Shown one piece after another: positions 14,842-59,776 of a stretch of 64,000 bases of DNA. Position numbers and translations under genes: made by a program. The notes beneath the pieces were generated by a model. It saw nothing but the letters and a program-made list of their open reading frames with translations, was not told the DNA's origin and made no database searches. Origin of the DNA: Candidatus Sungiibacteriota bacterium (lineage in GTDB: Bacteria > Patescibacteriota > Minisyncoccia > Sungbacterales > HO2-52-23); assembly GCA_016180435.1 (NCBI GenBank), contig JACPBG010000001.1:283107-347106 (forward strand), read 5' to 3'. Each line of letters opens with the position of its first letter. Within the stretch, counting starts at the first letter, position 1.

Positions 14842-17046
14842 TTATTTAGCAATTTTCTTAAACAAATCAATCCATTCCTGCGCGGCATCTTCCCAGGAAT
14901 GAACAATATGCGTCTTTCTCAACTTTTCTCTTTGCGCCGCCCTATTTCTTTCATCCATCAGCCATTTCAATTTCCGAACGAGTTCGTCATCATTTAACGA
15001 ATCAACCCAAAATGAACTATCCGCAATATATTCAGTATAACCGGAATTTTTAGTAAAAAGAAACGGGGTGCCGCCCGAATATGCTTCGGCAATGACATTG
15101 GGCCCCACATCGGAAAACGACGGCAGGACGAGAAACGAAACTCCGGACATTTCTTGCAGAAGGTCATCGTGGCGCGCCGGCGGCGCAAAAGTAATGCCCA
15201 TAAAGCCCTTTTCTTTCACAAATTTTTCAACCCGGGTTTTCTCCGGTCCGTCTCCTATCAATTTAAGTTCATATCCACCCGCATTTGCGGCAGAAAACGC
15301 GCGGATGAGGCGATACAAATTTTTAAGGTAAAGCATTCTGCCGACCCATAGAATAACTTTGGTTACTGGTAACTGGTTACTGGTAACTGCTTGAGATGGC
15401 CAAACATTGCGGATAATAACGGTCTTTTGGCGATCAATTCCAAACGCCTGAATGATCATTTCACGGCGCCACTTAGATGAAAACACCAAGCGATCCGCGC
15501 GGCGCATAACCCAGCCGATCGTGGCGCGTATAATGCGCTCTTTATGGGTGAGTGCCTGAAAATTTGCATAAAAATCCGGCAGCGTTACCTCGCGTTGCGT
15601 TCGTTCCACAAAACTTTCCCATAAAAAATCACCCTCCACCCGCAACACGAATGGGATTCTGAATAATACGGACGCAAGCGCCGCGGGGAAACCTGCGCTA
15701 AATGAATCCAGACCCATAATTATATCGGCAAAAAAACATTTCCGGGCGAATTTTAAAAAATAGACAAAATGGCGCACCAGCGTCGGGAGAGATAAAACAT
15801 CCCCGAAAGAGACCACGGAAACGCGCATACCGGATGCGCGAAATTTATCTCCAAAATTTTTGGCATAAAGCGCCGGGCCACCCAACTGTGGCGGGTATAA
15901 AGGAGTAGCTATAAGAATGTTCAACACCCGGTGTTGAACAAAGCGAGAAAAGATTTCCCCGTAAGATGCCGCTATTTTATCCCACGAAAAGCTTTCCTCC
16001 ACCATTTTTCTGCCCCCCTCAATGGTCTGTTTGGCATCTTCGGGATGGCGCAAAACATATATGATCTTTTGGGCAAGATCATCGGCATCGTCCGGTTTTG
16101 CGAAAAAACCTGTTTTTCCGTCCTCAATAATGTCCGTAATACCGCCGACCGGAGTACCGATAATCGGGAGACCGGCGGCAAGCGCCTCTACAAACGAATT
16201 ACCCATGCCCTCGGAGCGGGAAGGACGGACGAAAACATCGGCTCCATGCAGATACTTTGAAATTTCGTCATGAGGAACACTGCCGAAAAACTTTACGTTA
16301 GTTTCAAGACGGTTACTGGTTACTAATAACTGGTAACTAGTTCTCTCGGGGCCGTCGCCAATAATATGGCATTGAATATCCGGAATTTCTTTTTTCACCT
16401 CGGCTACAGCCTTTATTAGCGTATCTATGCCATTTTTATACACCAGCCGAGACGTGGTTATTATGATTTTTTGTTTTAGATTCTTTTGAAAATTAGAAAT
16501 TGGAGATTGGAAATTTTTAACATCTACGCCATTGTGTATCACTTCACCCGGTTCGTTGTAGCCGTAGCGCCGCGCCAAATTCAAAAGATAACTGGAAATT
16601 GCAGTAACGTAATCAGCCCGGCCTAGAATAAAACGAAACATAAGAGATATTATACCAAACCGGCCATGGGATAAACGCTCCTCACTCTCGCCGAATTGAA
16701 TGTTCAATATAAAAGGAACGGAGGGATGTAATAGTTTATATATGGCAGCGGCAATTGACCCATGCGAAATATCCACTCCAATTACTATAGAGGCTAAGCC
16801 TCTATAGTAAAATTGGGCTAAAATAAGCCAATATTTATCAAGGGGGGTCCCGATACCGAATCGCACAATAGTGCCTTCGGGGCGGATCTCTTTTTTAGGA
16901 AGCTCGCGGCGAAAACGCGAAGTAAAGATTAAAAAATCAAAACGGTTTGATAACCGCTTGGCAACTTCCGAAATAGCGATTTCCGCGCCTCCGATAAACG
17001 GATGATAAGCGGTGGAAAAAACAATAATTTTAGGTTTTATGAACAA
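14842..17046 (-). CDS. two-module glycosyltransferase (double GT4 fusion)
   Basis: 734 aa with two consecutive GT-B units (…RPSRSEGMGNSFVEALAAGLPIIGT… and …LPSFSDVGPNVIAEAYSGGTPFLFT…). It contains three in-frame short repeat insertions. Confidence 0.75.
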   Translation of the reverse strand: MFIKPKIIVFSTAYHPFIGGAEIAISEVAKRLSNRFDFLIFTSRFRRELPKKEIRPEGTIVRFGIGTPLDKYWLILAQFYYRGLASIVIGVDISHGSIAAAIYKLLHPSVPFILNIQFGESEERLSHGRFGIISLMFRFILGRADYVTAISSYLLNLARRYGYNEPGEVIHNGVDVKNFQSPISNFQKNLKQKIIITTSRLVYKNGIDTLIKAVAEVKKEIPDIQCHIIGDGPERTSYQLLVTSNRLETNVKFFGSVPHDEISKYLHGADVFVRPSRSEGMGNSFVEALAAGLPIIGTPVGGITDIIEDGKTGFFAKPDDADDLAQKIIYVLRHPEDAKQTIEGGRKMVEESFSWDKIAASYGEIFSRFVQHRVLNILIATPLYPPQLGGPALYAKNFGDKFRASGMRVSVVSFGDVLSLPTLVRHFVYFLKFARKCFFADIIMGLDSFSAGFPAALASVLFRIPFVLRVEGDFLWESFVERTQREVTLPDFYANFQALTHKERIIRATIGWVMRRADRLVFSSKWRREMIIQAFGIDRQKTVIIRNVWPSQAVTSNQLPVTKVILWVGRMLYLKNLYRLIRAFSAANAGGYELKLIGDGPEKTRVEKFVKEKGFMGITFAPPARHDDLLQEMSGVSFLVLPSFSDVGPNVIAEAYSGGTPFLFTKNSGYTEYIADSSFWVDSLNDDELVRKLKWLMDERNRAAQREKLRKTHIVHSWEDAAQEWIDLFKKIAK
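16785..16807. repeat. 23-nt CTATAGAGGCTAAGCCTCTATAG palindrome inside the double-GT4 CDS (in frame, encodes YYRGLASIV)
   Basis: Exact copy of the intergenic palindrome. Confidence 0.6.
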
Positions 17047-23393: not shown

Positions 23394-23748
23394 TCAATGG
23401 CGTATAAGATCCGTATTTACAATAATTACACCGATAAAATCGGCGTATCCTAAATTAAATTTAATTAAAAAACGATTTCGACGCTTTAATAAGTAAAAGA
23501 GTTGCTCAAATCCATATTTTCCAAAAGTAATCAAACCTTGCTTTGAAAATTAGGAATAGAGTAACTCTTTTTATTATATCCTCTCTGAAAACCCATGCAA
23601 TAGGGGGGGCTGTGGATAACTTTTCTCGCTCGCTATAGCGGTTTCGGCTGTTGCAATTTAGACATGGCTATCTACTCGGTAATCGCCTTTTCGTTCAAAA
23701 CTTCGGTCTGGACAAAGTTTTCGTTCGGCATCCTGCGTTTTTCGGCAA

Positions 23749-23957
23749 GGCTTCGGCCGCTCCTGCGGCGGCCTGCAGGGTCGGAAAAATTCTCAGACCG
23801 TCCGAAAACTGCAAAAACAGCACTTTCGTCATTCTGAGCGCAGCGAAGAATCTCGTATTTAAGCCATTATAAAAACGCATAGATTCTTCACGTTGTTCAG
23901 AATGACAGTTTTCGGACGGTCTGAGACCAAGCAATTTTTCCTCCCATTGCCGAAAAA
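23749..23957 (-). ncRNA. structured element copy D (expanded ~140-nt hairpin) upstream of the 585-aa surface protein gene
   Basis: Diverged but recognisable flanks (…CTCCTGCGGCGGCCTGCAGGGTCGG… and …ACCAAGCAATTTTTCCTCCCATTG…). They surround a near-perfect long hairpin whose outer stem is CTCAGACCGTCCGAAAACTG/CAGTTTTCGGACGGTCTGAG. Confidence 0.35.
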
Positions 23958-24180
23958 ATGCAGGGTGCCTCACTTATAGCAAAGATAGGCCTTCCGTTAA
24001 TTTCACGAAAAAAGCGGATTACCTCGCCAAGAAATTCATATTGCACATTGCAATGGCCAAAATCGCAGCTGACTCGCTTTTGGGGATTGCTGAATGTATA
24101 CGCCTTCGGCGGTTACTCCATTATATAAAAATGAAACAATTTATATCATAGATAAGCCATTTTCCCATCAGGAAAACACC

Positions 24181-24210
24181 AAAAAACCCCGCTTAAAAAA
24201 CGGGGTTTTC
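24181..24210 (-). terminator. second hairpin terminator (AAAACCCCG-loop-CGGGGTTTT), bidirectional in appearance
   Basis: GC stem flanked by A-run and T-run on both sides. Confidence 0.4.
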
Positions 24211-24423
24211 TATTAGTGAAGTCCGACTTCAATAGATTATCTATTGAAGTCGGACTTCGATAACTTAAATAATTACAAAGCCCCGCTGGAAGCGGGGCTT
24301 TGTCGAGCTCATTCACCCCGTTAGAGATCCGGCCCATCGCAATAGAATGTCAGAAATTATCTCTCCGGTTCCATACGCTTCACCACGATTTTACCGTTCC
24401 GCATCTCTAACGGGGCAAGCAAG

Positions 24424-24460
24424 GATAAAAAAACCAACCCCCAAGAGAGGGGGTTGGTTC
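24424..24460 (-). terminator. rho-independent terminator after the giant surface protein gene
   Basis: Stem AACCAACCCCC / GGGGTTGGTT with loop AAGAGAG, followed on the minus strand by a T-run. It lies 20 nt past the stop codon. Confidence 0.6.
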
Positions 24461-24479
24461 CAAGTCCACAAGGATGACT

Positions 24480-28049: not shown

Positions 28050-28237
28050 AGATTTTATTAATTATATTTGAAACCCATCCGTTCTTCCCTGCGTTGCAAA
28101 GAATGAAAGGAGGGCTTCGTGGCACAAGCGCTCATCTTTTTTTATCTTCGACGATTAGATAAATTGATGGGCGCTATTTTATTACCTGTTAATGCTGATA
28201 ATTTCTGTTGGAGTCAAGCCTAACCCGCGCTCCGCGC

Positions 28238-28460
<223 letters not shown>

Positions 28461-28516
28461 CTCCGTGCGAAGCACAGGACCGACCGGACTTTGAAGCTCC
28501 ATCGTGATTCAATTTA

Positions 28517-28805: not shown

Positions 28806-29030
28806 ACTTATCCACATATGCATGATGCCAATCCGATGCGAATTTAATGCCAATCTGGCGAATTGCTAATATGTGATGCCAATCCAATGCGAATTTAATG
28901 CCAATTTAGCGAATTGCTAATATGTGATGCCAATCCGATGCGAATTTAATGCCAATCTGGCGAATTGCGAATAAATATTAAGTTCATTTGTAGATTAGCA
29001 TAAGATTTGTAGATTGGCATCATATATGCA
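28806..29030. repeat. GATGCCAAT-family composite element (52-nt unit x3 tandem + inverted arm)
   Basis: TGATGCCAATCCGATGCGAATTTAATGCCAATCTGGCGAATTGCTAATATG x3, then TTGTAGATTAGCATAAGATTTGTAGATTGGCATCAT. Confidence 0.65.
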
Positions 29031-31626: not shown

Positions 31627-31722
31627 ATATATGATGCCAATCTACAAATCTTATGCTAATCTACAAATTGCGAATCGGCTTGCGCCGGTATGATGCTAAT
31701 CTATGAATGATATGCCAATCTA
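31627..31722. repeat. GATGCCAAT-family element abutting the start of the 217-aa membrane protein gene
   Basis: TGATGCCAATCTACAAATCTTATGCTAATCTACAAATTGCGAAT…. Confidence 0.6.
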
Positions 31723-33198
31723 CTATATTATTTCAGCTGCTTTAGCTATTCCCAGCAATTTCCCCTCCTCAAACCACTTGCCCGCCAATTGCAGTCCCAC
31801 CGGCAATTTCTTTCCTTCCCGCTCCACAAATCCGGCCGGAATGGAAATTGCAGGCACGCCGGCAAGATTCGCGGCCACGGTATAGATATCCGCCAAATAC
31901 ATCTGAAGAGGGTTATCGGCTTTTTCTCCGAAACAAAAAGCCGGAGTTGGAGCCGTGGGGCCTAAAATTACATCTGTGGCATTTAAAGCGTGTTCAAAAT
32001 CCTGCCGGATAAGCCGCCGTACTTTCTGGGCTTTAACGTAATACGCATCATAATATCCGGCTGAAAGCGTATAGGTGCCGAGCATAATACGGCGTTTAAC
32101 CTCCGCTCCGAACCCATAAGCGCGCGATTTAGCATATACTTCATACAAGCTGGTAGCTGATAGTTGGTAGCTGGTAGCTGCGCTAAGGCCGTATCGAATG
32201 CCGTCAAATCTGGCTAAATTGGCCGAGATCTCGGAAGGCACCACAATATAATAAGTAGGCAGGGCATATTCGGAGTGCGGCAGAGATATTTCTTTTATTA
32301 TAGCGCCGGATGACTCCATTTTTCCAATCACCGCTTCTATAACTTTTTTCACGTCCGCATCCAATCCCGCGCCAAAATACTCTTTTGGGATGCCGATCCG
32401 AACGCCTTTTAGGCGTTCGGGAATTTCCAATTTCCAATTTCCAATTTCCAAACTTTCTTTTTTAACTGCTGTTGAATCAAATTCATCTCCTCCCTTAATC
32501 GCATCAAATAAAATAGCGGCATCCTCTACCGACTTTGCCATGGGTCCGATCTGATCCAGAGAAGATGCCATAGCAATCAATCCATGGCGGCTGACAATGC
32601 CGTACGTGGGTTTTAAGCCGACAATTCCGCAAAAAGACGCGGGCTGGCGGATTGATCCTCCGGTATCCGACCCCAAGGCGGCTATACAAAGATTTCCGGC
32701 AACAGCCGAGGCAGATCCGCCCGAAGATCCGCCGGGAACGCGAGACAAATCATACGGATTTTTAGTTGATACATATGCGGAATTTTCTGTGGAGGATCCC
32801 ATAGCGAACTCGTCCAGATTGGTTTTTCCAAGAAAAATTGCGCCTTGTTTTTTTAATTTACGTATCACCGTTGCGTCATAACTTGCAATATAGTTCTCCA
32901 AAATTTTTGATCCGGCAGTGCATTTTTTACCTTCAATCAGGATATTGTCCTTAATCGCCAGAGGAATCCCGAATAGCGGTGGGAGTTTCATCCGCTCTTC
33001 ATGATTCACGACGCCAAGCATCTCATCTGCCTTTTTTGCCTCATCCAATGCATCGTCAAATACTTCAAGATAAGCATGCAATTCGCTATTTTTTTCTTTA
33101 ATCGCCTGAAGGAAATTCGAAACCAGCTCGGATACCGAAAACTTTTTCTGGCGCAACCCGCCTGAGGCATCTTTGATTGTAAGTTCATTCAACTTCAT
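31723..33198 (-). CDS. gatA: Asp/Glu-tRNA amidotransferase subunit A
   Basis: Amidase signature GGSSGGSASAVAGNLCIAALGSDTGGSIRQPASFCG. It starts MKLNELTIKD and is followed by gatC. Confidence 0.9.
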   Translation of the reverse strand: MKLNELTIKDASGGLRQKKFSVSELVSNFLQAIKEKNSELHAYLEVFDDALDEAKKADEMLGVVNHEERMKLPPLFGIPLAIKDNILIEGKKCTAGSKILENYIASYDATVIRKLKKQGAIFLGKTNLDEFAMGSSTENSAYVSTKNPYDLSRVPGGSSGGSASAVAGNLCIAALGSDTGGSIRQPASFCGIVGLKPTYGIVSRHGLIAMASSLDQIGPMAKSVEDAAILFDAIKGGDEFDSTAVKKESLEIGNWKLEIPERLKGVRIGIPKEYFGAGLDADVKKVIEAVIGKMESSGAIIKEISLPHSEYALPTYYIVVPSEISANLARFDGIRYGLSAATSYQLSATSLYEVYAKSRAYGFGAEVKRRIMLGTYTLSAGYYDAYYVKAQKVRRLIRQDFEHALNATDVILGPTAPTPAFCFGEKADNPLQMYLADIYTVAANLAGVPAISIPAGFVEREGKKLPVGLQLAGKWFEEGKLLGIAKAAEII

Positions 33199-33200
33199 TT

Positions 33201-33285
33201 CTTTACGAAATACGAATTTTTACGAATATACGAATCAACGTGAATTTACTATTCGTAAATTCGTACTGATTGGTATTCCGTAAAG
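33201..33285. repeat. TACGAAT-rich 85-nt element with terminal inverted repeats (copy 1), abutting the gatA start
   Basis: CTTTACGAAATAC … GTATTCCGTAAAG termini. About 95% identical to copy 2 at 48504-48588. Confidence 0.7.
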
Positions 33286-36268: not shown

Positions 36269-36440
36269 ATCAATATGATGCCAATCTACAAATCTTATGC
36301 TAATCTACAAATTGCAAATAATTATTCTTCGAGTTAAATCGAGAAGATACCATCATAATGTATATTCTCGACAGGCTCGAATAATAACGATTCGCAATTC
36401 GCCAAATTGGCATTAAATTCGCATCGGATTGGCATCACGC
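36269..36440. repeat. GATGCCAAT-family palindromic element (long copy) abutting the ligA start
   Basis: Left arm TGATGCCAATCTACAAATCTTATGCTAATCTACAAATTGC… and right arm …GCAATTCGCCAAATTGGCATTAAATTCGCATCGGATTGGCATCA. Confidence 0.65.
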
Positions 36441-36845
36441 TTAATATGTGACCCTAAACGCCCTCCTCACCGAGCGAGTTCCCACATTACATCTATATTC
36501 GGCAGTCACCTGAATTTGCGTCAAAACGCCTACTTTAGTAACTCCCATGTCATAACATGCTCCGGATAATAATGGATAATCATTTTCCGTAGAACCGTTA
36601 GGCAGAGGGCCTATAACGCGATCGCGATAAAGCGTACGCTCGACCCCGTGGTCCGAACCGTTTATGGCATGAAAAGAATCCTCCATGGCGCCGGTAATTA
36701 AAAGCTCCCCATAAAGCACGTTAAATACTCCGATTCCGATAGAAAGTATGGCGGTAAGCAAAAAAACAGTTAATAATAGTGCGATTCCTTGGCGTTGCTG
36801 TAATTTCCAAATTCCAAATTTCATAAATTTCCAAACAATTTCCAA
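36441..36845 (-). CDS. pilin-like small membrane protein (no canonical class III signal)
   Basis: N-terminal hydrophobic helix after QRQG. Located at the head of the pilin gene run. Confidence 0.3.
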   Translation of the reverse strand: MEIVWKFMKFGIWKLQQRQGIALLLTVFLLTAILSIGIGVFNVLYGELLITGAMEDSFHAINGSDHGVERTLYRDRVIGPLPNGSTENDYPLLSGACYDMGVTKVGVLTQIQVTAEYRCNVGTRSVRRAFRVTY

Positions 36846-36883: not shown

Positions 36884-37648
36884 CTAAAAGTCCCTCAACC
36901 TTTGGGTCATAGTGGTTTGAATGTCAAGCATTGACTGCAGTTTGGTTTTCACGCCCCTGGAGCGCGCCCGAAGCGTGATTCGCACCCAGGGCTGGCCGTC
37001 ATCCGCGCCCGAGGCCTGTCCGAACAGATCAAATCGCAAACGTTCGATCGTAACATTATCCGTATCGGTAAAGGGGGCCGCATCCGAACAATTGAACGAG
37101 GCTTGAGTCACTCGCATAATAGTATCCGGAGCGCCGTTGTTATCGGTGTCATACAAAAAATAGGTTCGCGGCTGGGGAAATCCTTTATTCCAGTGGGTAA
37201 AACTAAACTCGGAATCCAAAGGAACCCGCGATGCGCCGCAAGCTGTTCTACCTTTGGTCGTTTTCTGATATGCGGCTCCGGTTCGGATCTCACGCGAAAA
37301 AAGCTCAAAGGTAAAACGGATGTTATCCTGCATAAGAAGCAGTGTCCCGACTTTTTCTCTGGCGTTTTGCGCCGCGATCATAACGCCGGTGGCCATCATT
37401 ACGGTAACGGAGAAAATGGAAAGAGAAACCAGCATCTCCAGAAGGGTGAAACCCCTCTTAAATGCAAAATGCAAAATGCAAAAATCAAAATTAAAGTATC
37501 GCTTCGCGACGTATTTTATATAAGCTAATTTTGAATTTTGAATTTTCATTTTGACTTTTGATGTTTTAAAACCAGTCCCCAAAAGTGATGCGGGCTCGGT
37601 TATTTTAATTTCAGACAATGGGAGGCAGGATTTGCTCGGACCGAGCAC
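36884..37648 (-). CDS. type IV pilin-like protein (minor pilin/pseudopilin)
   Basis: Prepilin class III signal KRG|FTLLEMLVSLSIFSVTV. Confidence 0.65.
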   Translation of the reverse strand: MLGPSKSCLPLSEIKITEPASLLGTGFKTSKVKMKIQNSKLAYIKYVAKRYFNFDFCILHFAFKRGFTLLEMLVSLSIFSVTVMMATGVMIAAQNAREKVGTLLLMQDNIRFTFELFSREIRTGAAYQKTTKGRTACGASRVPLDSEFSFTHWNKGFPQPRTYFLYDTDNNGAPDTIMRVTQASFNCSDAAPFTDTDNVTIERLRFDLFGQASGADDGQPWVRITLRARSRGVKTKLQSMLDIQTTMTQRLRDF

Positions 37649-37747
37649 TCAAAGCATTGAGTGCTCGGAAATCGTGCCGACCCTTAGTGAGGCCGCCGCA
37701 GGAGCGGCCGAATCGTGTCTGAAATTAAAATAACCGAGAAAACCGCA

Positions 37748-41649: not shown

Positions 41650-41765
41650 GCGAGCTTCGCCCGAGAACTTAGCATTAAGAACTTAGAACTTAGACAAGCA
41701 CCTAGAACCTAGAACTTAGAAAATTAAACTATTTACTAAGTTCTAAACTCTAAGATCTAAATTCT
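41650..41765. repeat. AGAACTTAG hairpin element between the major pilin gene and pilC
   Basis: Shares the loop AGAAAATTAAACTATTTACTA with the copy at 28362-28382, in opposite orientation. Confidence 0.6.
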
Positions 41766-43002: not shown

Positions 43003-43108
43003 AGCGGTTTCAACCATATTATTTTAGACACGCCTCGCTCGCTCCGGCGGCTCGCTCGCTAAGGGTCGGACGAAACTTTTCCGCCAAAGCGGAAAACCAA
43101 GCAGTTTC
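43003..43108 (-). ncRNA. structured element copy A (conserved flanks + covarying hairpin) upstream of pilC
   Basis: Minus-strand reading is UUUUAGACAAUGGGAGG, then the hairpin GGACGAAACU…AGUUUCGUCC, then GACCCUUAGCGAGCGAGCCGCCGGAGCGAGCGAGGCGUGUCUAAAA. Confidence 0.4.
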
Positions 43109-43199
43109 GTCCTCCCATTGTCTAAAATCATATGGTTAAAACCGCATGTATACTCACTTTATAGCTTTCTCAAGGTATCCGCCTCTGGCGGAATAAAAT

Positions 43200-43262
43200 T
43201 AAACGCAGAGTATTAGCAATTTGTAAATTGGCATTAAATTCGCATCGGATTGGCATCACATC
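43200..43262. repeat. GATGCCAAT-family half element downstream of pilT
   Basis: GCATTAAATTCGCATCGGATTGGCATCA. Confidence 0.5.
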
Positions 43263-44353
43263 TATCGCTTCAGAAGCGATTTAAGTTCTCCGGGATTTAA
43301 GGAGTACAAAATAGCGTTTTCCATGGATATTTCGCCTCGGCGCACCAAATCCGAAAGCGAGCGGTTCAAACTCACCATCCCCTGCTCAAGATTGGTCTCA
43401 ATCACCAAATCAATCTCATGGATTTTATTTTCCCGGACAAGAGTACGCACCGCCGGATTGGCAATCATGATCTCAACTGCCGGAACCAAGCCCCCGCCGA
43501 TCCGAGGAATCAAGCGCTGGGAAACAATACCTATGAGAGTAGAGGCAAGCTGGGCCCTGATCTGCCCCTGGCGGAAAGATGGAAATGTGTCAATAATCCG
43601 ATCGATGGATTGGGCCGCATTATTGGTATGAAGCGTGGATAAAATCAGGTGGCCGGTTTCGGCGGCCGATACCGCGGTTCCCATGGTTTCGGCATCGCGC
43701 ATTTCGCCGATCATCGCCACATCCACATCTTCGCGAAAAACCGAACGAAGCGCCCGGTCAAAACCAATCGTATCCAGCCCAACTTCGCGCTGGTCAATGA
43801 TCGCACGGTCGGACACAAAAAGGTATTCAATCGGATCCTCAATGGTTATAATATGGTCCGAGCGCGAATGATTGATAAAATCCACTATGGCCGCAAGCGT
43901 AGTTGATTTCCCGTGCCCGGTAGGTCCCACCACCAAGAAAAAACCCTGCTGGATTTGGGCAAATTCCTCCAAAATCGGAGGCAGATTTAATTCTTTCAGG
44001 GAACGGATTTTAGTCGGAACTACGCGAAGAGCCGACCCCATAAAACCTTTTTGATAAAAGGTATTAACGCGAAACCGCACCCGATCTTTAAAGGTATAAG
44101 AAAAATCGAGTTCTTTTTCCTGCAAAAAACGCTCGCGCTGCTCATCGCTCATCAGGGATAACACAAATTCCTCCGTGTCTGCAGGAGTCATTACCGCATG
44201 CTTCACCAGAGGCACGAGCGCCCCATCCACCCGCAAAGTTGGATTGCGTCCCACGGAAATATGCAAATCAGATGCATTTTCTTTCAGGACGGCGTTAAAT
44301 AAATCCTCAAATTTATTTTGCAACGTTGGCTCGCCATTACACTTTCTCGACAC
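43262..44353 (-). CDS. pilT: type IV pilus retraction ATPase PilT
   Basis: Walker A GPTGHGKSTT, Asp box, His box and the N-terminal NASDLHI. The start codon is GTG or TTG and overlaps the upstream structured element. Confidence 0.8.
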   Translation of the reverse strand: MSRKCNGEPTLQNKFEDLFNAVLKENASDLHISVGRNPTLRVDGALVPLVKHAVMTPADTEEFVLSLMSDEQRERFLQEKELDFSYTFKDRVRFRVNTFYQKGFMGSALRVVPTKIRSLKELNLPPILEEFAQIQQGFFLVVGPTGHGKSTTLAAIVDFINHSRSDHIITIEDPIEYLFVSDRAIIDQREVGLDTIGFDRALRSVFREDVDVAMIGEMRDAETMGTAVSAAETGHLILSTLHTNNAAQSIDRIIDTFPSFRQGQIRAQLASTLIGIVSQRLIPRIGGGLVPAVEIMIANPAVRTLVRENKIHEIDLVIETNLEQGMVSLNRSLSDLVRRGEISMENAILYSLNPGELKSLLKR

Positions 44354-44446
44354 GCCTCGCTCGCTCCTGCGGCTCGCTCGCTAAGGGTCGGCGCGATTTT
44401 CCGCCCATGGCGGATCCAAGCAAATCGCGCCTCCCATTGTCTCGAA
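44343..44446 (-). ncRNA. structured element copy B upstream of pilT
   Basis: Same flanks as copy A. Inner hairpin GGCGCGAUU…AAUCGCGCC. Confidence 0.4.
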
Positions 44447-44476
44447 AGTACAATGGACTCGCTATAAAAAATTATT

Positions 44477-44845: not shown

Positions 44846-44960
44846 AAATGTGATGCCAATTTACAAATCTTATGCCAATCTGGCGAATTGCGAATACGCT
44901 AATGATTATTATTCGCAATTTGTAGATTAGCATTAAATTCGCATCGGATTGGCATCATAT
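44846..44960. repeat. GATGCCAAT-family palindromic element between pilB and the response regulator start
   Basis: The arms are inverted repeats, with central loop CGCTAATGATTAT. Confidence 0.65.
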
Positions 44961-44963
44961 ATA

Positions 44964-46688
44964 TTACACCACTTCCAGCAACTCTTCCATACCCATAATC
45001 CCCTTCAACACTTTAAGCGCTCCGTCTTGGCGCATGGTAATCATACCCTGGCGTTGGGCTTCTTCCAGAAGTTTATTCTCCGTGGCACCGGCCAAAATTA
45101 TTTTTTCAAGCTCCGGAGTCATAGAATACATCTCATAAATCCCGATTCGTCCCCGGGTTCCTTTGGGGCAAGCCGATGAGACCTCGGCTTGATAAATCTC
45201 GGAAGGGATATTCTTGCGGGCCGCCTCCCCCTCTTCGCCCGGAATTTCACTGATCTCTTTAATAATCGTGTCTTTGATTTTTCCCGTAAGTTTGACTTTT
45301 TTGCGCGAATCCGGACAAAGGCGCCTGGTCAGACGCTGGGCCATCATCAAAACAACGGTGGAGGGAATCAAATAAGGGTCAACGCCCATATCGATCAAGC
45401 GCGGAATCACACCCGTCGCATTATTGGTGTGAAGAGTGGACAACACCAGGTGTCCGGTAAGCGCCGCATGTACCGCAAGAGTTGCTGTTTCTTTGTCGCG
45501 TATTTCACCAACCATAATAATATCCGGGTCTTGGCGTAAAATATGGCGAAGGCCCGTGGCAAAATCGTAATTGATTTCCGGACGAACTTGCGACTGATTG
45601 ACTCCGTTGACGTAGTATTCTATGGGATCCTCCAAACTAACGATATTGACTCCCTCTTCATTCAGCATCTGAAGCAGGGCATAAAGCGTAGTGGATTTAC
45701 CGGAACCGGTGGGTCCGGTGATCAAAATCATGCCAAAAGGCGCCTTGATCGCCTCCTCAATCGCGGTTTTATTCCTTCCCGTGATCCCGAGATCTTCCAG
45801 ATTGGAAATGCCGGATGAAGGATCCAAAATACGTATCACCACTTTTTCTCCGAAAGACGTTGGAAAAGTAGATACGCGGAAATCAATTTCCCGGTCAAGA
45901 ATCTTAGCATGAAACCGCCCATCCTGCGGGACCCGGGTCTCATCAATTTTTAAATTTGTCATTACTTTGATCCTGGAAACGAGCGCCGCATGCACTCCCT
46001 GGGGAAGAGTAAGATTGATGTGCAATATGCCATCCACTCGGAATCGGATGCGAAGCTGGTCGCGGCCGGGTTCAATATGAATGTCGGACGCCCTGCCCTC
46101 CACGGCGTGCCGCAAAATTACAGCGACTATCTTGGTCACCGGAGCATCCTCCACGATCTTGGTTTCAGACCCCTTGCCCTTGCCCACTATATCGCCCAGC
46201 GACTCATATTCCTTTTCAAATTCGCCTAAGGCCTTAGTGACCTCTCCGGTCAAATTCTTATACTGCATTAGTACATTCTGAAAATCTGACGGCGTTACAA
46301 TAAACATGCGCAAAGGCAGATTTATGCGCGACGCGATGAATTTTACGGCTTCGCGCGCCGAAACATCCTCCGGGAAAAGCATTCCCGCATCAAAATACCC
46401 TTCGGATTTTCCCAAAGGAATTACGCTGTAATGACGCGCCGATTCTTCCGGAATATCGTGCAGCGCTTCAAGCTCCACCGAAGCCCCTTGCAGATATTTA
46501 ACCGGAAATCCGGTAAGTTCGGCTTTGGCATCTGCCACATCCCCCTCTTGAATCCCGCGGGCATAAAGCACGTCATCTATTGAAATGCTCTTATCCTGCG
46601 CGTCTAAACGAGCTTGCGCGGCTTCATTCAAATCAATTACGCCGCGGGAAACCAAAATGTCCAATAATGAACGGGCCATAGAACACAC
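44964..46688 (-). CDS. pilB: type IV pilus assembly ATPase PilB/GspE family
   Basis: N-terminal GSPII_E_N-like domain, Walker A GPTGSGKSTTL, and a CxxC…CxxC tetracysteine. Confidence 0.85.
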   Translation of the reverse strand: MCSMARSLLDILVSRGVIDLNEAAQARLDAQDKSISIDDVLYARGIQEGDVADAKAELTGFPVKYLQGASVELEALHDIPEESARHYSVIPLGKSEGYFDAGMLFPEDVSAREAVKFIASRINLPLRMFIVTPSDFQNVLMQYKNLTGEVTKALGEFEKEYESLGDIVGKGKGSETKIVEDAPVTKIVAVILRHAVEGRASDIHIEPGRDQLRIRFRVDGILHINLTLPQGVHAALVSRIKVMTNLKIDETRVPQDGRFHAKILDREIDFRVSTFPTSFGEKVVIRILDPSSGISNLEDLGITGRNKTAIEEAIKAPFGMILITGPTGSGKSTTLYALLQMLNEEGVNIVSLEDPIEYYVNGVNQSQVRPEINYDFATGLRHILRQDPDIIMVGEIRDKETATLAVHAALTGHLVLSTLHTNNATGVIPRLIDMGVDPYLIPSTVVLMMAQRLTRRLCPDSRKKVKLTGKIKDTIIKEISEIPGEEGEAARKNIPSEIYQAEVSSACPKGTRGRIGIYEMYSMTPELEKIILAGATENKLLEEAQRQGMITMRQDGALKVLKGIMGMEELLEVV

Positions 46689-47123: not shown

Positions 47124-47140
47124 GTTTCGCTCGCCGATGC

Positions 47141-47247
47141 GTTTTCAAGACACGACTCGCTCGCTCCTGCGGCTCGCTCGCTAAGGGTCGGGCAAAATTT
47201 CGCGTTTCGCGCGAACCAAGCAATTTTGCCCTCCCATTGTCTTGAAA
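47141..47247 (-). ncRNA. structured element copy C upstream of the 110-aa membrane protein gene
   Basis: Same flanks. Inner hairpin GGGCAAAAU…AUUUUGCCC. Perfect outer stem GUUUUCAAGACA/UGUCUUGAAAAC. Confidence 0.4.
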
Positions 47248-47286
47248 ACGTATCGGACTCGCTTATAACACAAACTCCATATGTAT

Positions 47287-47943: not shown

Positions 47944-48501
47944 CTATTGCGGTTTTAAATAAAGTAAATCCGGTTTCACAATAATCGATGCCGTAAAACT
48001 CACGGTATTTTTTTCGCCCAGAGACAATCCGCCGAATTCTACACGCTCAACCATCGGATCATTTTCCAAAATAGTAATCTGGCGCGCAAGCGCGGTATAG
48101 TCAAGCGCCTTGCCGGAAACATCAACTTTTCGGCTGCCGGCCAAAAACGCAAAATCTCCGAATTGCACCTGCGGATGAGCTTTATCTTCAACCAGTTTTA
48201 AAACATTTGTGGCGAAAAGATGGCCGGCAAGCAAAGACCGCAGATTCTTAAGCCGCGCATCCAATAGAAATACTTCCTCGGTCGCAGAAGAATTAAGATC
48301 TTCCTCTTTTAATTTAACTTCGGAACGCAAGGTGTCGCGATTATCTGTCTGCTTCTTATTTAATATCGTAAGCGCCCCGTAACCGCCGGCGGTTACCAAA
48401 AAAATGAAGAAAGCCAAAAAATAAACAAAAGCCGGCGCGCCTTGCGGAAGGGGCGGAGCAGTTCTTGGCAGTTGCTCTTGTCTTAATAGTAAGTTTGGCA
48501 T
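47944..48501 (-). CDS. pilN: PilN-like pilus assembly protein
   Basis: TM anchor followed by a periplasmic domain. It lies immediately downstream of pilM. Confidence 0.55.
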   Translation of the reverse strand: MPNLLLRQEQLPRTAPPLPQGAPAFVYFLAFFIFLVTAGGYGALTILNKKQTDNRDTLRSEVKLKEEDLNSSATEEVFLLDARLKNLRSLLAGHLFATNVLKLVEDKAHPQVQFGDFAFLAGSRKVDVSGKALDYTALARQITILENDPMVERVEFGGLSLGEKNTVSFTASIIVKPDLLYLKPQ

Positions 48502-48503
48502 GC

Positions 48504-48588
48504 CTTTACGAAATACGAATTTTTACGAATATACGAATCAGCGAGAATTTACTATTCGTAAATTCGTACTGATTAGTATTTCGTAAAG
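48504..48588. repeat. TACGAAT-rich 85-nt element (copy 2) between pilM and pilN, abutting the pilN start
   Basis: Near-identical to 33201-33285. It ends 2 nt before the pilN ATG. Confidence 0.7.
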
Positions 48589-52186: not shown

Positions 52187-52391
52187 ACATTAAGCGAACT
52201 CCACACGCTCTCTCTTCAGGGATTGTCTTTAATTTCGAGTGCGCGGTCGAGGCGGTTCTTTTTAAAAACCATTGAGAAGCCGATTGGCACGGTCTCCGAC
52301 CGCAGTCGGAGCAATCGGCTGATCATTGAGAACAGCCGCCCGCTGGGGCGGCTGTTCGTGTTTTCAAAAAGAATCGCCTCGAAAACCGCGC

Positions 52392-59732: not shown

Positions 59733-59776
59733 GATTTTACGAAATACGAATTACTACGAATTTACGAATAATTTTA
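59733..59776. repeat. TACGAAT-family short copy abutting the clpP start
   Basis: TTTTACGAAATACGAATTACTACGAATTTACGAATAATTTT. Confidence 0.5.

Follow-up and report, generated by a model that had tools for sequence, protein, structure and literature searches.

A multi-copy three-way-junction element and a copy with a nested palindromic insertion in a 64-kb segment of a Candidatus Sungiibacteriota genome

Around positions 23749-23957 of a 64,000-nucleotide stretch of a Candidatus Sungiibacteriota genome (contig JACPBG010000001.1, positions 283,107 to 347,106; the whole stretch is called the window in the following), the minus strand carries a long, strongly structured sequence upstream of a gene for a repeat protein. 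The locus raises the question whether this sequence, here called copy O, is a switch for the adjacent gene, a gene for an RNA, or a repeat that happens to lie there. A preliminary description had regarded it as the fourth, expanded member of an element family of the pilus locus, with a structured cassette between fixed flanks, and had proposed a common control of pilus genes and surface-protein genes. The evidence presented below leans, though not heavily, towards another reading, namely that O is a copy of a dispersed, strongly structured intergenic repeat in a groundwater Parcubacteria lineage of the candidate phyla radiation (CPR), which resembles repetitive extragenic palindromic sequences (REP) and the hairpins formed by REP doublets (REPIN) or enterobacterial repetitive intergenic consensus sequences (ERIC), and that it is not a gene-specific switch.

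The flanks and the hairpin of about 140 nt were found where they had been described. Each of the two flank strings had one exact match, on the minus strand at 23927-23948 and 23749-23784, and no further match in the window was found even with 3 mismatches. The relaxed patterns ATGGGAGG-N5-15-GCTNGG for the 5′ flank and CGACCCT-N3-14-GCCGCNGGAGCG for the 3′ flank both matched the same five window loci, while shuffled sequences led to an expectation of 0.01 and 0.00 matches, respectively. The flank similarity is thus far beyond chance, which had been named as a possible objection. O was matched by both patterns, and it carries the two cores in the right order on one strand. The outer stem of its insert is an exact inverted pair of 20 nt (23792-23811 / 23906-23925); the inner stem, with the arm GTCATTCTGAGCGCAGCGAAGAATC at 23828-23852, contains a mismatched stretch of roughly 5 nt and is thus not near-perfect.

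When the minus strand of 23735-23965 was folded as RNA, a free energy of -105.8 kcal/mol was obtained (z = -8.75; 0 of 200 shuffles were as good). The minimum free energy (MFE) fold and the centroid fold contained P1, a GGG/CCC helix, P2, a 7-nt bulge, an extended P3, and P4, and the flanks of O formed the same helices and the same architecture as the short copies of the window. The junction of O is thus intact in the fold despite the insertion. For the longer segment 23640-24080 (minus strand) the value was -176 kcal/mol (z = -8.47), with outer helices formed by 24028-24014 with 23688-23676 and beyond. Via these nested helices the element is larger than the span 23749-23957 that had been assigned to it. 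Its parts are the following:

About 23625-24111, minus strand: full extent of O, nested long-range helices with clamps of the GCGAG/CGAGC type around the three-way-junction core.
24093-24111, minus strand: 5′ module, a small GC hairpin (24111-24101) and then TACATT (24098-24093).
23949-23973, minus strand: 5′ strand of P1, the first letters of which are the GUGAGG clamp; its partner is 23746-23723 in both the MFE and the centroid fold.
23927-23948, minus strand: conserved 5′ core AAUGGGAGG (exact match), the 5′ strand of P2 and the 7-nt bulge UGCUUGG.
23791-23926, minus strand: the P3 arm, expanded in O, which folds as a continuous hairpin.
23801-23916, minus strand: insertion of 116 nt in comparison to the locus L198, an H1-core palindrome TCCGAAAACTG...CAGTTTTCGGA that carries H2.
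23828-23906, plus strand: H2 palindrome with the arms GTCATTCTGAGCGCAGCGAAGAATC / GATTCTTCACGTTGTTCAGAATGAC, of which stand-alone copies exist elsewhere.
23773-23790, minus strand: 3′ strand of P2 and conserved 3′ core, CCGACCCUGCAG in O and CCGACCCUUAG in other copies.
23755-23773, minus strand: P4 hairpin, GGCCGC-CGCAGGA-GCGGCC, with the conserved 7-nt loop CGCNGGA.
23723-23746, minus strand: 3′ strand of P1, the last letters of which are the CCGAAC clamp.

All five window loci that matched the patterns, including O, fold as the same three-way junction. A long outer helix, P1, is closed by at least one Y-GA-R clamp (tandem G.A) and is followed by the linker J1/2 (AAU) and the GGG/CCC helix, which continues via a 1x2 internal loop (A / GA) into P2. 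Next come the 7-nt bulge UGCUYGG, the variable hairpin P3, the linker UUA, P4, and a short linker to P1. The base of P4 is a tandem G.A module (YGAG / CGAR) and its 7-nt loop reads CGCNGGA; this loop was found in 50 of 53 parsed copies and was absent from the pattern used for the metagenome search. RNAalifold predicted 45 pairs for 55 copies, and compensatory changes were present in 37 of them. In the covariance model R1 with 87 distinct sequences 94.4% of the cells were paired, double changes were seen in 41 of 42 pairs, and the covariation score was 0.68; shuffles scored 0.18, and with slid partners the score did not exceed 0.135. All 16 modelled pairs of P1 covaried across the family, the pairs of P4 covaried too, and the closing pair of the G.A module at the P4 base did so without exception (C..G 36, U..A 17). 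The stem sequences differ in every copy, and the nucleotides of core, junction, bulge, and loop are conserved, with the columns of the 5′ core invariant in two family alignments. Taken together, the covariation is very strong and the fold of the family is real, and the flanks of O belong to a genuine family.

At the base of P1 the 3′ strand of the Y-GA-R clamp reads CCGAGCA (as in L121, ...UACCGAGCAAAC). The bulge UGCU(U/C)GG (23933-23927 in O) is exactly complementary to this strand in the Watson-Crick sense, and it equals the 5′ strand of the clamp with GA replaced by UY. This complementarity, which was noticed in the sequence alone, suggests a possible alternative pairing or strand exchange. 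No covariation was found between the variable nucleotide of the P4 loop and the bulge or its neighbors, and thus a tertiary pair was not supported.

How widespread is the family? A scan of GTDB genomes with a GC-rich 3′ pattern was dominated by chance matches in high-GC genomes and under-sampled the taxonomic breadth; among the matches listed, 4 of 116 loci were genuine, and these came from the Parcubacteria metagenome-assembled genomes LCKU01 and VMFQ01 only. For the metagenome scan a stricter two-gap pattern was used. In total 86 metagenome loci, largely from groundwater, and 3 Parcubacteria genome loci were found, from which 66 distinct copies were extracted by pattern. R1 yielded 124 matches, comprising 87 distinct sequences, in 725 kb of related Parcubacteria and groundwater DNA, and the density was roughly one copy per 6-10 kb. 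The family and the H1 palindrome were not found in the IMG/VR collection. In a BLAST search of phage and plasmid collections with the whole O element the only match was 44 nt of the H2 region in a Calothrix plasmid. Rfam 15 had 0 matches in the window at the gathering score; at E<=10 only hairpin noise was obtained for copies O, C, and A on either strand, and the element itself remained unmatched. Searches of the literature by topic and by sequence string did not retrieve a description of the three-way-junction element.

The window contains six members according to R1, and the earlier count, with O as the fourth, was too low. O itself was aligned only partly (20.8 bits) because of its 116-nt insert. 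The other five members are:

Copy A, 37601-37731, plus strand: 115.3 bits; antisense to both flanking pseudopilin genes; ortholog in L119.
Copy B, 43015-43135, minus strand: 123.1 bits; upstream of a PilC-like gene.
Copy C, 44337-44454, minus strand: 116.4 bits; between the stop codon of a response-regulator gene and the start codon of a PilT-like gene.
Copy D, 47137-47254, minus strand: 120.5 bits; ortholog at L017:4087-4214.
Copy E, 52254-52374, plus strand: a diverged member, 58 bits, E = 5e-12; antisense between two minus-strand genes.

Copy E has UGA/UCA in place of the GGG/CCC helix, and its cores are CAUUGAGAAG ... CUGAUCAUUGAG. Near this copy a terminator-like hairpin lies on the gene strand (52186-52158). 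Copy D and its ortholog have identical P1 and P2, and their P3 arms are completely different.

The pairs that are not of the Watson-Crick type revealed which strand is folded. Among the modelled pairs G.U was found 83 times versus 43 times for A.C, and G.A/A.G 105 times versus 11 times for C.U/U.C. The bias was kept in the 33 copies that are antisense to both neighboring genes (G.U 29 / A.C 13; G.A 41 / C.U 4). Since it persists in these antisense copies, the folded strand is the one with AAUGGGAGG, irrespective of how the neighboring genes are oriented. If the element is a dispersed repeat, the conserved unpaired core and the G.A clamps could form the surface by which a protein that maintains or spreads the element recognizes it on one strand.

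A fold that ignores the orientation of the neighbors, together with extreme covariation and conserved nucleotides in junction, bulge, and loop, also speaks for an alternative, which is possible but rather doubtful: the copies could represent a new class of structured non-coding RNA (ncRNA) that exists in many copies and is expressed independently, either a protein-bound scaffold or a self-cleaving ribozyme. The ends of the scaffold would be set by the tandem-G.A clamps, as by kink-turns (K-turns) in C/D-box small RNAs (sRNA), and O would then be a functional gene whose P3 is decorated. Consistent with such genes, 20 of the 83 distinct copies (about 24%) have a module at a constant position 5′ of the helix base, which consists of a hairpin and TAC[AC][TA]T-AAGAAAA and includes a TAnnnT-type motif; the sequence of O at 24111-24093 matches this module. 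In addition, O is preceded just upstream by the promoter-like site ATGATA-18-TATAAT (24149-24120, minus strand), but such sites occur at chance frequency. Between this site and the preceding gene, which encodes a protein of 1189 aa with a peptidoglycan-binding domain, there are three consecutive terminator-like hairpins (24180-24461, minus strand), so that the site stands after the terminators of that gene. Copies that are retained as orthologs in genomes with about 80% identity would likewise fit to RNA genes.

Several results argue against genes of this kind. Position profiles, a scan for sigma-70 promoters and terminators, tracing of the outer helix, and the composition of the flanks yielded nothing consistent on the forward strand beyond the TAC[AC][TA]T motif, and neither a consistent -35 box nor a terminator for a forward transcript was found. 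G.U pairs make up 2.4% of the paired cells, which is unusually low for an RNA under selection, and the lack of covariation between P4 loop and bulge does not favor a tertiary contact. In a genome of about 1 Mb some 100 paralogous RNA genes would be without precedent, and at 5 of 7 syntenic sites copies were lost or replaced by other palindromes (see below). An ncRNA would thus be the better explanation for the strand-specific fold and the conserved unpaired positions, and the worse one for the low G.U content, the turnover of sites, and the lack of promoter and terminator signals. The specific version, a multi-copy structured CPR ncRNA with its own expression from the folded strand, K-turn-like clamp ends, and a protein-binding or catalytic core, has to be regarded as similarly doubtful, if anything slightly more so. 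If it were true, the family would be a bacterial counterpart of dispersed genes for small ribonucleoproteins or a new class of ribozymes, and O would show which arm is dispensable.

The genomic context was decisive against the proposed control function. The window is a chromosomal segment that is syntenic, with 76-82% nucleotide identity, with LCKU01000009 and with a metagenome contig of 37 kb; according to Pfam it encodes a type IV pilus locus, glycosyltransferases, ClpP, trigger factor, RNase Y, DNA ligase, and other proteins. The genes that neighbor 78 distinct copies of the element include those for DnaK, MreB, PPDK, ClpP, RRF, S19, S4, RecA, FtsW, PBPs, and pilus proteins. With respect to their neighbors, 33 copies were antisense to both genes, 14 were on the same strand as both, 11 were in convergent and only 3 in divergent intergenic regions. 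An opposite-strand gene had its stop codon at the 3′ side of the folded strand in 49 of 70 cases; the median distance from the end of the model was 27 nt.

These numbers leave little room for a cis-regulatory leader, i.e., a riboswitch or protein-binding 5′-untranslated region (5′-UTR) that would control the Thr-rich surface protein together with the pilus genes and in which P3 would be an exchangeable cassette. The positions of B, C, and D directly upstream of pilus-locus genes on the gene strand would agree with it, as would the position of O upstream of the gene for a Thr/Ser/Ala-rich repeat protein of 574 aa. However, the adjoining genes of the family are functionally unrelated, most copies face an opposite-strand stop codon, and a minority of 14 of the 78 lies on the same strand as both neighbors. 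In the window itself A and E are antisense to their neighbors, C is missing from the same operon in L017 without a replacement, and O ends 268 nt before the ATG of the repeat-protein gene (23357). The gene next to the L198 ortholog of O is not the 574-aa repeat-protein gene at all, it is frr on the opposite strand, and the insert of O is made of unrelated repeats. A pilus- or surface-protein-specific control element is ruled out by this context, that is, by diverse neighbors, both orientations, positions after stop codons, and turnover at syntenic sites, and the leader as such is very improbable. Open reading frames (ORFs) that overlap O had no Pfam match and are interrupted by the 116-nt indel.

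The preference for positions behind genes brings up another possibility, which is unlikely on the whole, namely that the element is a generic hairpin of 3′-UTRs or intercistronic regions that is active as RNA in either orientation of its transcription, as a terminator, as a block to 3′ exonucleases, or as an RNase III site, while the core is incidental. The copies abut stop codons and avoid divergent promoter regions (3 versus 11 convergent), the stems are almost perfectly of the Watson-Crick type on both strands, and syntenic sites that lack a copy often hold a different long palindrome. In addition, about a quarter of the copies are followed, on the gene strand, by a hairpin with a U-run that resembles an intrinsic terminator, and therefore it is predicted that the reverse complement is transcribed within the 3′-UTR of the upstream gene. 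Also the opposite strand of the 24111-24093 module of O, a hairpin with a U-run, resembles an intrinsic terminator. However, the copies themselves do not combine a GC-rich hairpin with an immediate U-tract, as intrinsic terminators do: the 10 nt after the outer helix contained on average 2.5 U on the forward strand and 3.6 U on the reverse complement, which are not U-tracts, and the terminator scan found none at the copies, with the exception of the P4 hairpin of copy E. Furthermore, a generic hairpin leaves about 40 conserved unpaired or non-canonical positions and the strand-specific bias of G.A and G.U unexplained. If the element is a dispersed repeat, its effect on the neighboring genes would likewise be generic, as expected of a long hairpin that is transcribed into a 3′-UTR or an intercistronic region.

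A comparison of syntenic sites revealed that copies come and go. Only two of seven comparable intergenic sites, those of A and D, have a copy in both genomes, which are about 80% identical. At the L017 site of copy C the TAA of the response-regulator gene is directly followed by the ATG of pilT. The spacer upstream of pilC in L119 (L119:1200-1317) is devoid of copy B and contains a hairpin of GAACAG / CTGTTC units instead. Conversely, copies are present in L017/L154, L017/L143, and L119 at sites where the window has none. Copies are thus gained and lost between genomes that are about 80% identical, and different palindromic repeats appear to be interchangeable at the same site. A coupling of the orientation to the direction of replication was also considered and is contradicted by the data: according to the GC skew the window is a single replichore, but it has four minus-strand and two plus-strand copies.

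What, then, is the long hairpin of O? P3 has a length of about 17-32 nt in all copies other than O. Of the 66 copies defined by pattern, O is the single genuine case in which the 5′ and the 3′ core are more than 75 nt apart; rows above 75 nt for L175 and L176 were spurious matches to upstream motifs. Its origin became evident from L198, which is an ortholog of O with a short P3. L198 scored 81.3 bits as a full-length family member, and it shares with O the unusual features CCGACCCUGCAG and GCCUUGCCGAAAAAC. In an alignment of the two (window positions 23675-24027) the flanks were 91.7% and 83% identical, with a gap in between. The blastn break points were 23794 and 23917, in agreement with the pairwise alignment. 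At the apex of P3 L198 has CAGACCG immediately followed by CAGTCTG, while in O CAGACCG and CGGTCTG are separated by 116 nt; the difference thus consists of 116 nt and one G>A exchange. It had been inferred earlier that the region between the fixed flanks, i.e., P3, is variable in length, and the ortholog confirms that its expansion is tolerated.

The insert is not a cassette that belongs to the family. Its ends TCCGAAAACTG...CAGTTTTCGGA (H1) enclose a different interior in L126, L199, and L121, where they form hairpins on their own, and the interior of the insert is a copy of H2, with the arms GTCATYCTGARCGNAGYGARGRATC, which occurs alone in L057 (L057:6992-7046), L162, and L119. The insertion is therefore nested: two unrelated palindromic repeats, H2 inside H1, are located at the apex of P3. 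Terminal inverted repeats that are common to dispersed copies, a hallmark of miniature inverted-repeat transposable elements (MITEs), were found for both H1 and H2. The 116 nt have a CG dinucleotide on both sides, and the empty site of L198 reads CCG-CA-GTC, so that a duplication is indistinguishable from a palindromic target. In L141, L156, and L191 an extra hairpin-forming sequence is present within P4, just after the CGCNGG loop motif. The variation at the tips of P3 and P4 indicates that hairpin tips are the sites where the family accepts foreign palindromes. These tips might be functionally neutral, and other palindromic repeats could then land there without breaking the junction. The filled and empty pair of O and L198 exemplifies that palindromic repeats insert into the center of hairpin tips, nested three deep, and identifies P3 as the arm that can be altered.

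Some further features of the two palindromes were noted. The stand-alone H1 hairpins (L126:159-229, L199:12314-12384, L121:8219-8300) have the arms CAGACCGTCCGAAAACT / AGTTTTCGGACGGTCTG, which enclose two AACACCGGGTGTT palindromes, and the flanks of H1 are similar to CCGACCGNAGTCGG, which is a common native apex of P3 in the three-way-junction family. The H2 palindrome is cosmopolitan: its arm pattern was present in more than 120 contigs (L203-L322) of the viral database IMG/VR with a GC content of 42-65%, and 15 of the 151 arm matches in that collection had a detected partner arm at a distance of 2-83 nt on the downstream side. Each H2 arm contains GCGAAGC, a sequence known as a very stable DNA mini-hairpin. 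A literature search by sequence string did not find a paper on the H2 arms.

The family was compared with several known systems. The REP sequences, which include bacterial interspersed mosaic elements (BIME), and the REPINs of proteobacteria, which are mobilized by REP-associated tyrosine transposases (RAYT), share with it the high copy number, the extragenic, hairpin-forming nature, and the location after the 3′ ends of genes in both orientations. They are also transcribed into UTRs, are recognized on one strand as a folded structure, and vary in their presence between related genomes. The copies of the present family accordingly behave like REPs in being multi-copy, extragenic, and biased towards gene 3′ ends, and rare in divergent intergenic regions. 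Differences are nevertheless clear. REP stems and their 5′ GTAG are conserved in sequence, while the stems described here are unique to each copy and lack a GTAG consensus; a REP is a hairpin or hairpin doublet of 20-40 nt and the present element is a three-way junction of 120-300 nt; and a cognate RAYT, a Y1 HUH transposase, was not among the top Pfam families of the 64-kb window. ERICs, too, are imperfect palindromes; they measure about 127 bp and lie in intergenic regions that are transcribed. In some of them insertions of about 70 bp are present at specific internal positions, and such enlarged copies are the closest analog of the expanded P3 of O. However, ERICs have a common primary sequence along the whole element, and they have no three-way junction, tandem-G.A clamps, or copy-specific stems.

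K-turns and box C/D RNAs, which are bound by proteins of the L7Ae family, have in common with the element the tandem G.A pairs in a Y-GA-R context with flanking, covarying Watson-Crick pairs, which occur here at the helix base and at the base of P4. They differ in that no RUGAUGA or CUGA boxes were seen in the alignments of the family and that its modules are symmetric (YGAG / CGAR). In addition, most modules lack the 3-nt bulge immediately 5′ of the G.A pairs, there are no unpaired guide segments, the host is bacterial, and an L7Ae, Nop, or fibrillarin partner was not identified. The candidate motifs in Rfam 15 (riboswitches, ribozymes, and the motifs of Weinberg and Breaker) are also compact multi-helix junctions with conserved unpaired nucleotides and abundant covariation, but none of these families matched at E<=10, and the element has no consistent association with, or orientation towards, a gene. 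TIGR arrays, the CPR-associated arrays of guide RNAs, were rejected as a candidate, since they are tandem arrays with unpaired 9-nt spacers.

A further comparison concerns the integron attC sites, and hence the idea that the element is a DNA recombination site that folds as single-stranded DNA downstream of ORFs, with the antisense strand as the active one. The two have in common that structure is conserved over sequence, with variable stem sequences and terminal structures of variable length, that folding is strand-specific, and that the position is just 3′ of ORFs, with a mostly antisense folded strand. An attC site should, however, contain R and L boxes (RYYYAAC / GTTRRRY), which are absent from the family; its P1-proximal consensus is UUUUNAGAC / GUCUNAAAA. 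The neighbors are housekeeping genes in conserved synteny and not cassettes, the copies do not form arrays, and an integrase is not among the top Pfam families of the window. Such a recombination site is scarcely credible here.

The reading as a dispersed REP/REPIN- or ERIC-like repeat also has to face evidence that does not fit easily. Only the unpaired core is conserved while the stems are copy-specific, which is typical of functional RNAs and unlike the stems of REP, ERIC, or MITE elements. No gene for a transposase, a RAYT-like protein, an integrase, or a reverse transcriptase is present among the top Pfam families of the 64 kb, and a target-site duplication is not evident. Lastly, an independently transcribed RNA would be the simpler explanation for the strand-specific fold of antisense copies.

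Whichever reading is correct, the covariation of the family is among the clearest that can be obtained from sequence alone, and there is no Rfam entry for it. Genomes of Parcubacteria are tiny and densely coding, and yet this lineage retains an element of 120-300 nt at a density of roughly one per 6-10 kb. If it is a selfish or domesticated repeat, it has a new architecture, with copy-specific stems, a conserved junction, and tandem-G.A clamps, and it could readily serve as a marker for the dynamics of genomes in uncultured bacteria. In the case of a family of RNA genes, it represents a new class of ncRNA.

Several other repeats were observed in the window. Tandem units of 43 nt and runs of the heptamer CTAAGTT are located at 28233-28472 and 41650-41765, with an inverted partner 13.3 kb away (69 nt, 94% complementary), and the two regions bracket the pseudopilin gene block. 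A tandem repeat of 51 nt (TGATGCCAATCCGATGCGAATTTAATGCCAATCTGGCGAATTGC...) and copies related to it occur in several intergenic regions in both orientations (28823-28975, 31629-31734, 36273-36444, 43211-43265, and 44848-44964); one of these sites is the spacer between the response-regulator gene and pilB, where relatives carry a copy of the three-way junction instead. A repeat of 90 nt composed of TACGAA(A/T) units is present at 33196-33285 and 48499-48588 (93% identical), with a partial third copy at 59736-59769. Finally, the hairpin ACTATAGAGGCTAAGCCTCTATAGT recurs after genes at 16780, 18435, 20413, 20439, 50536, and 51290, and it looks like a shared repeat of the terminator type.

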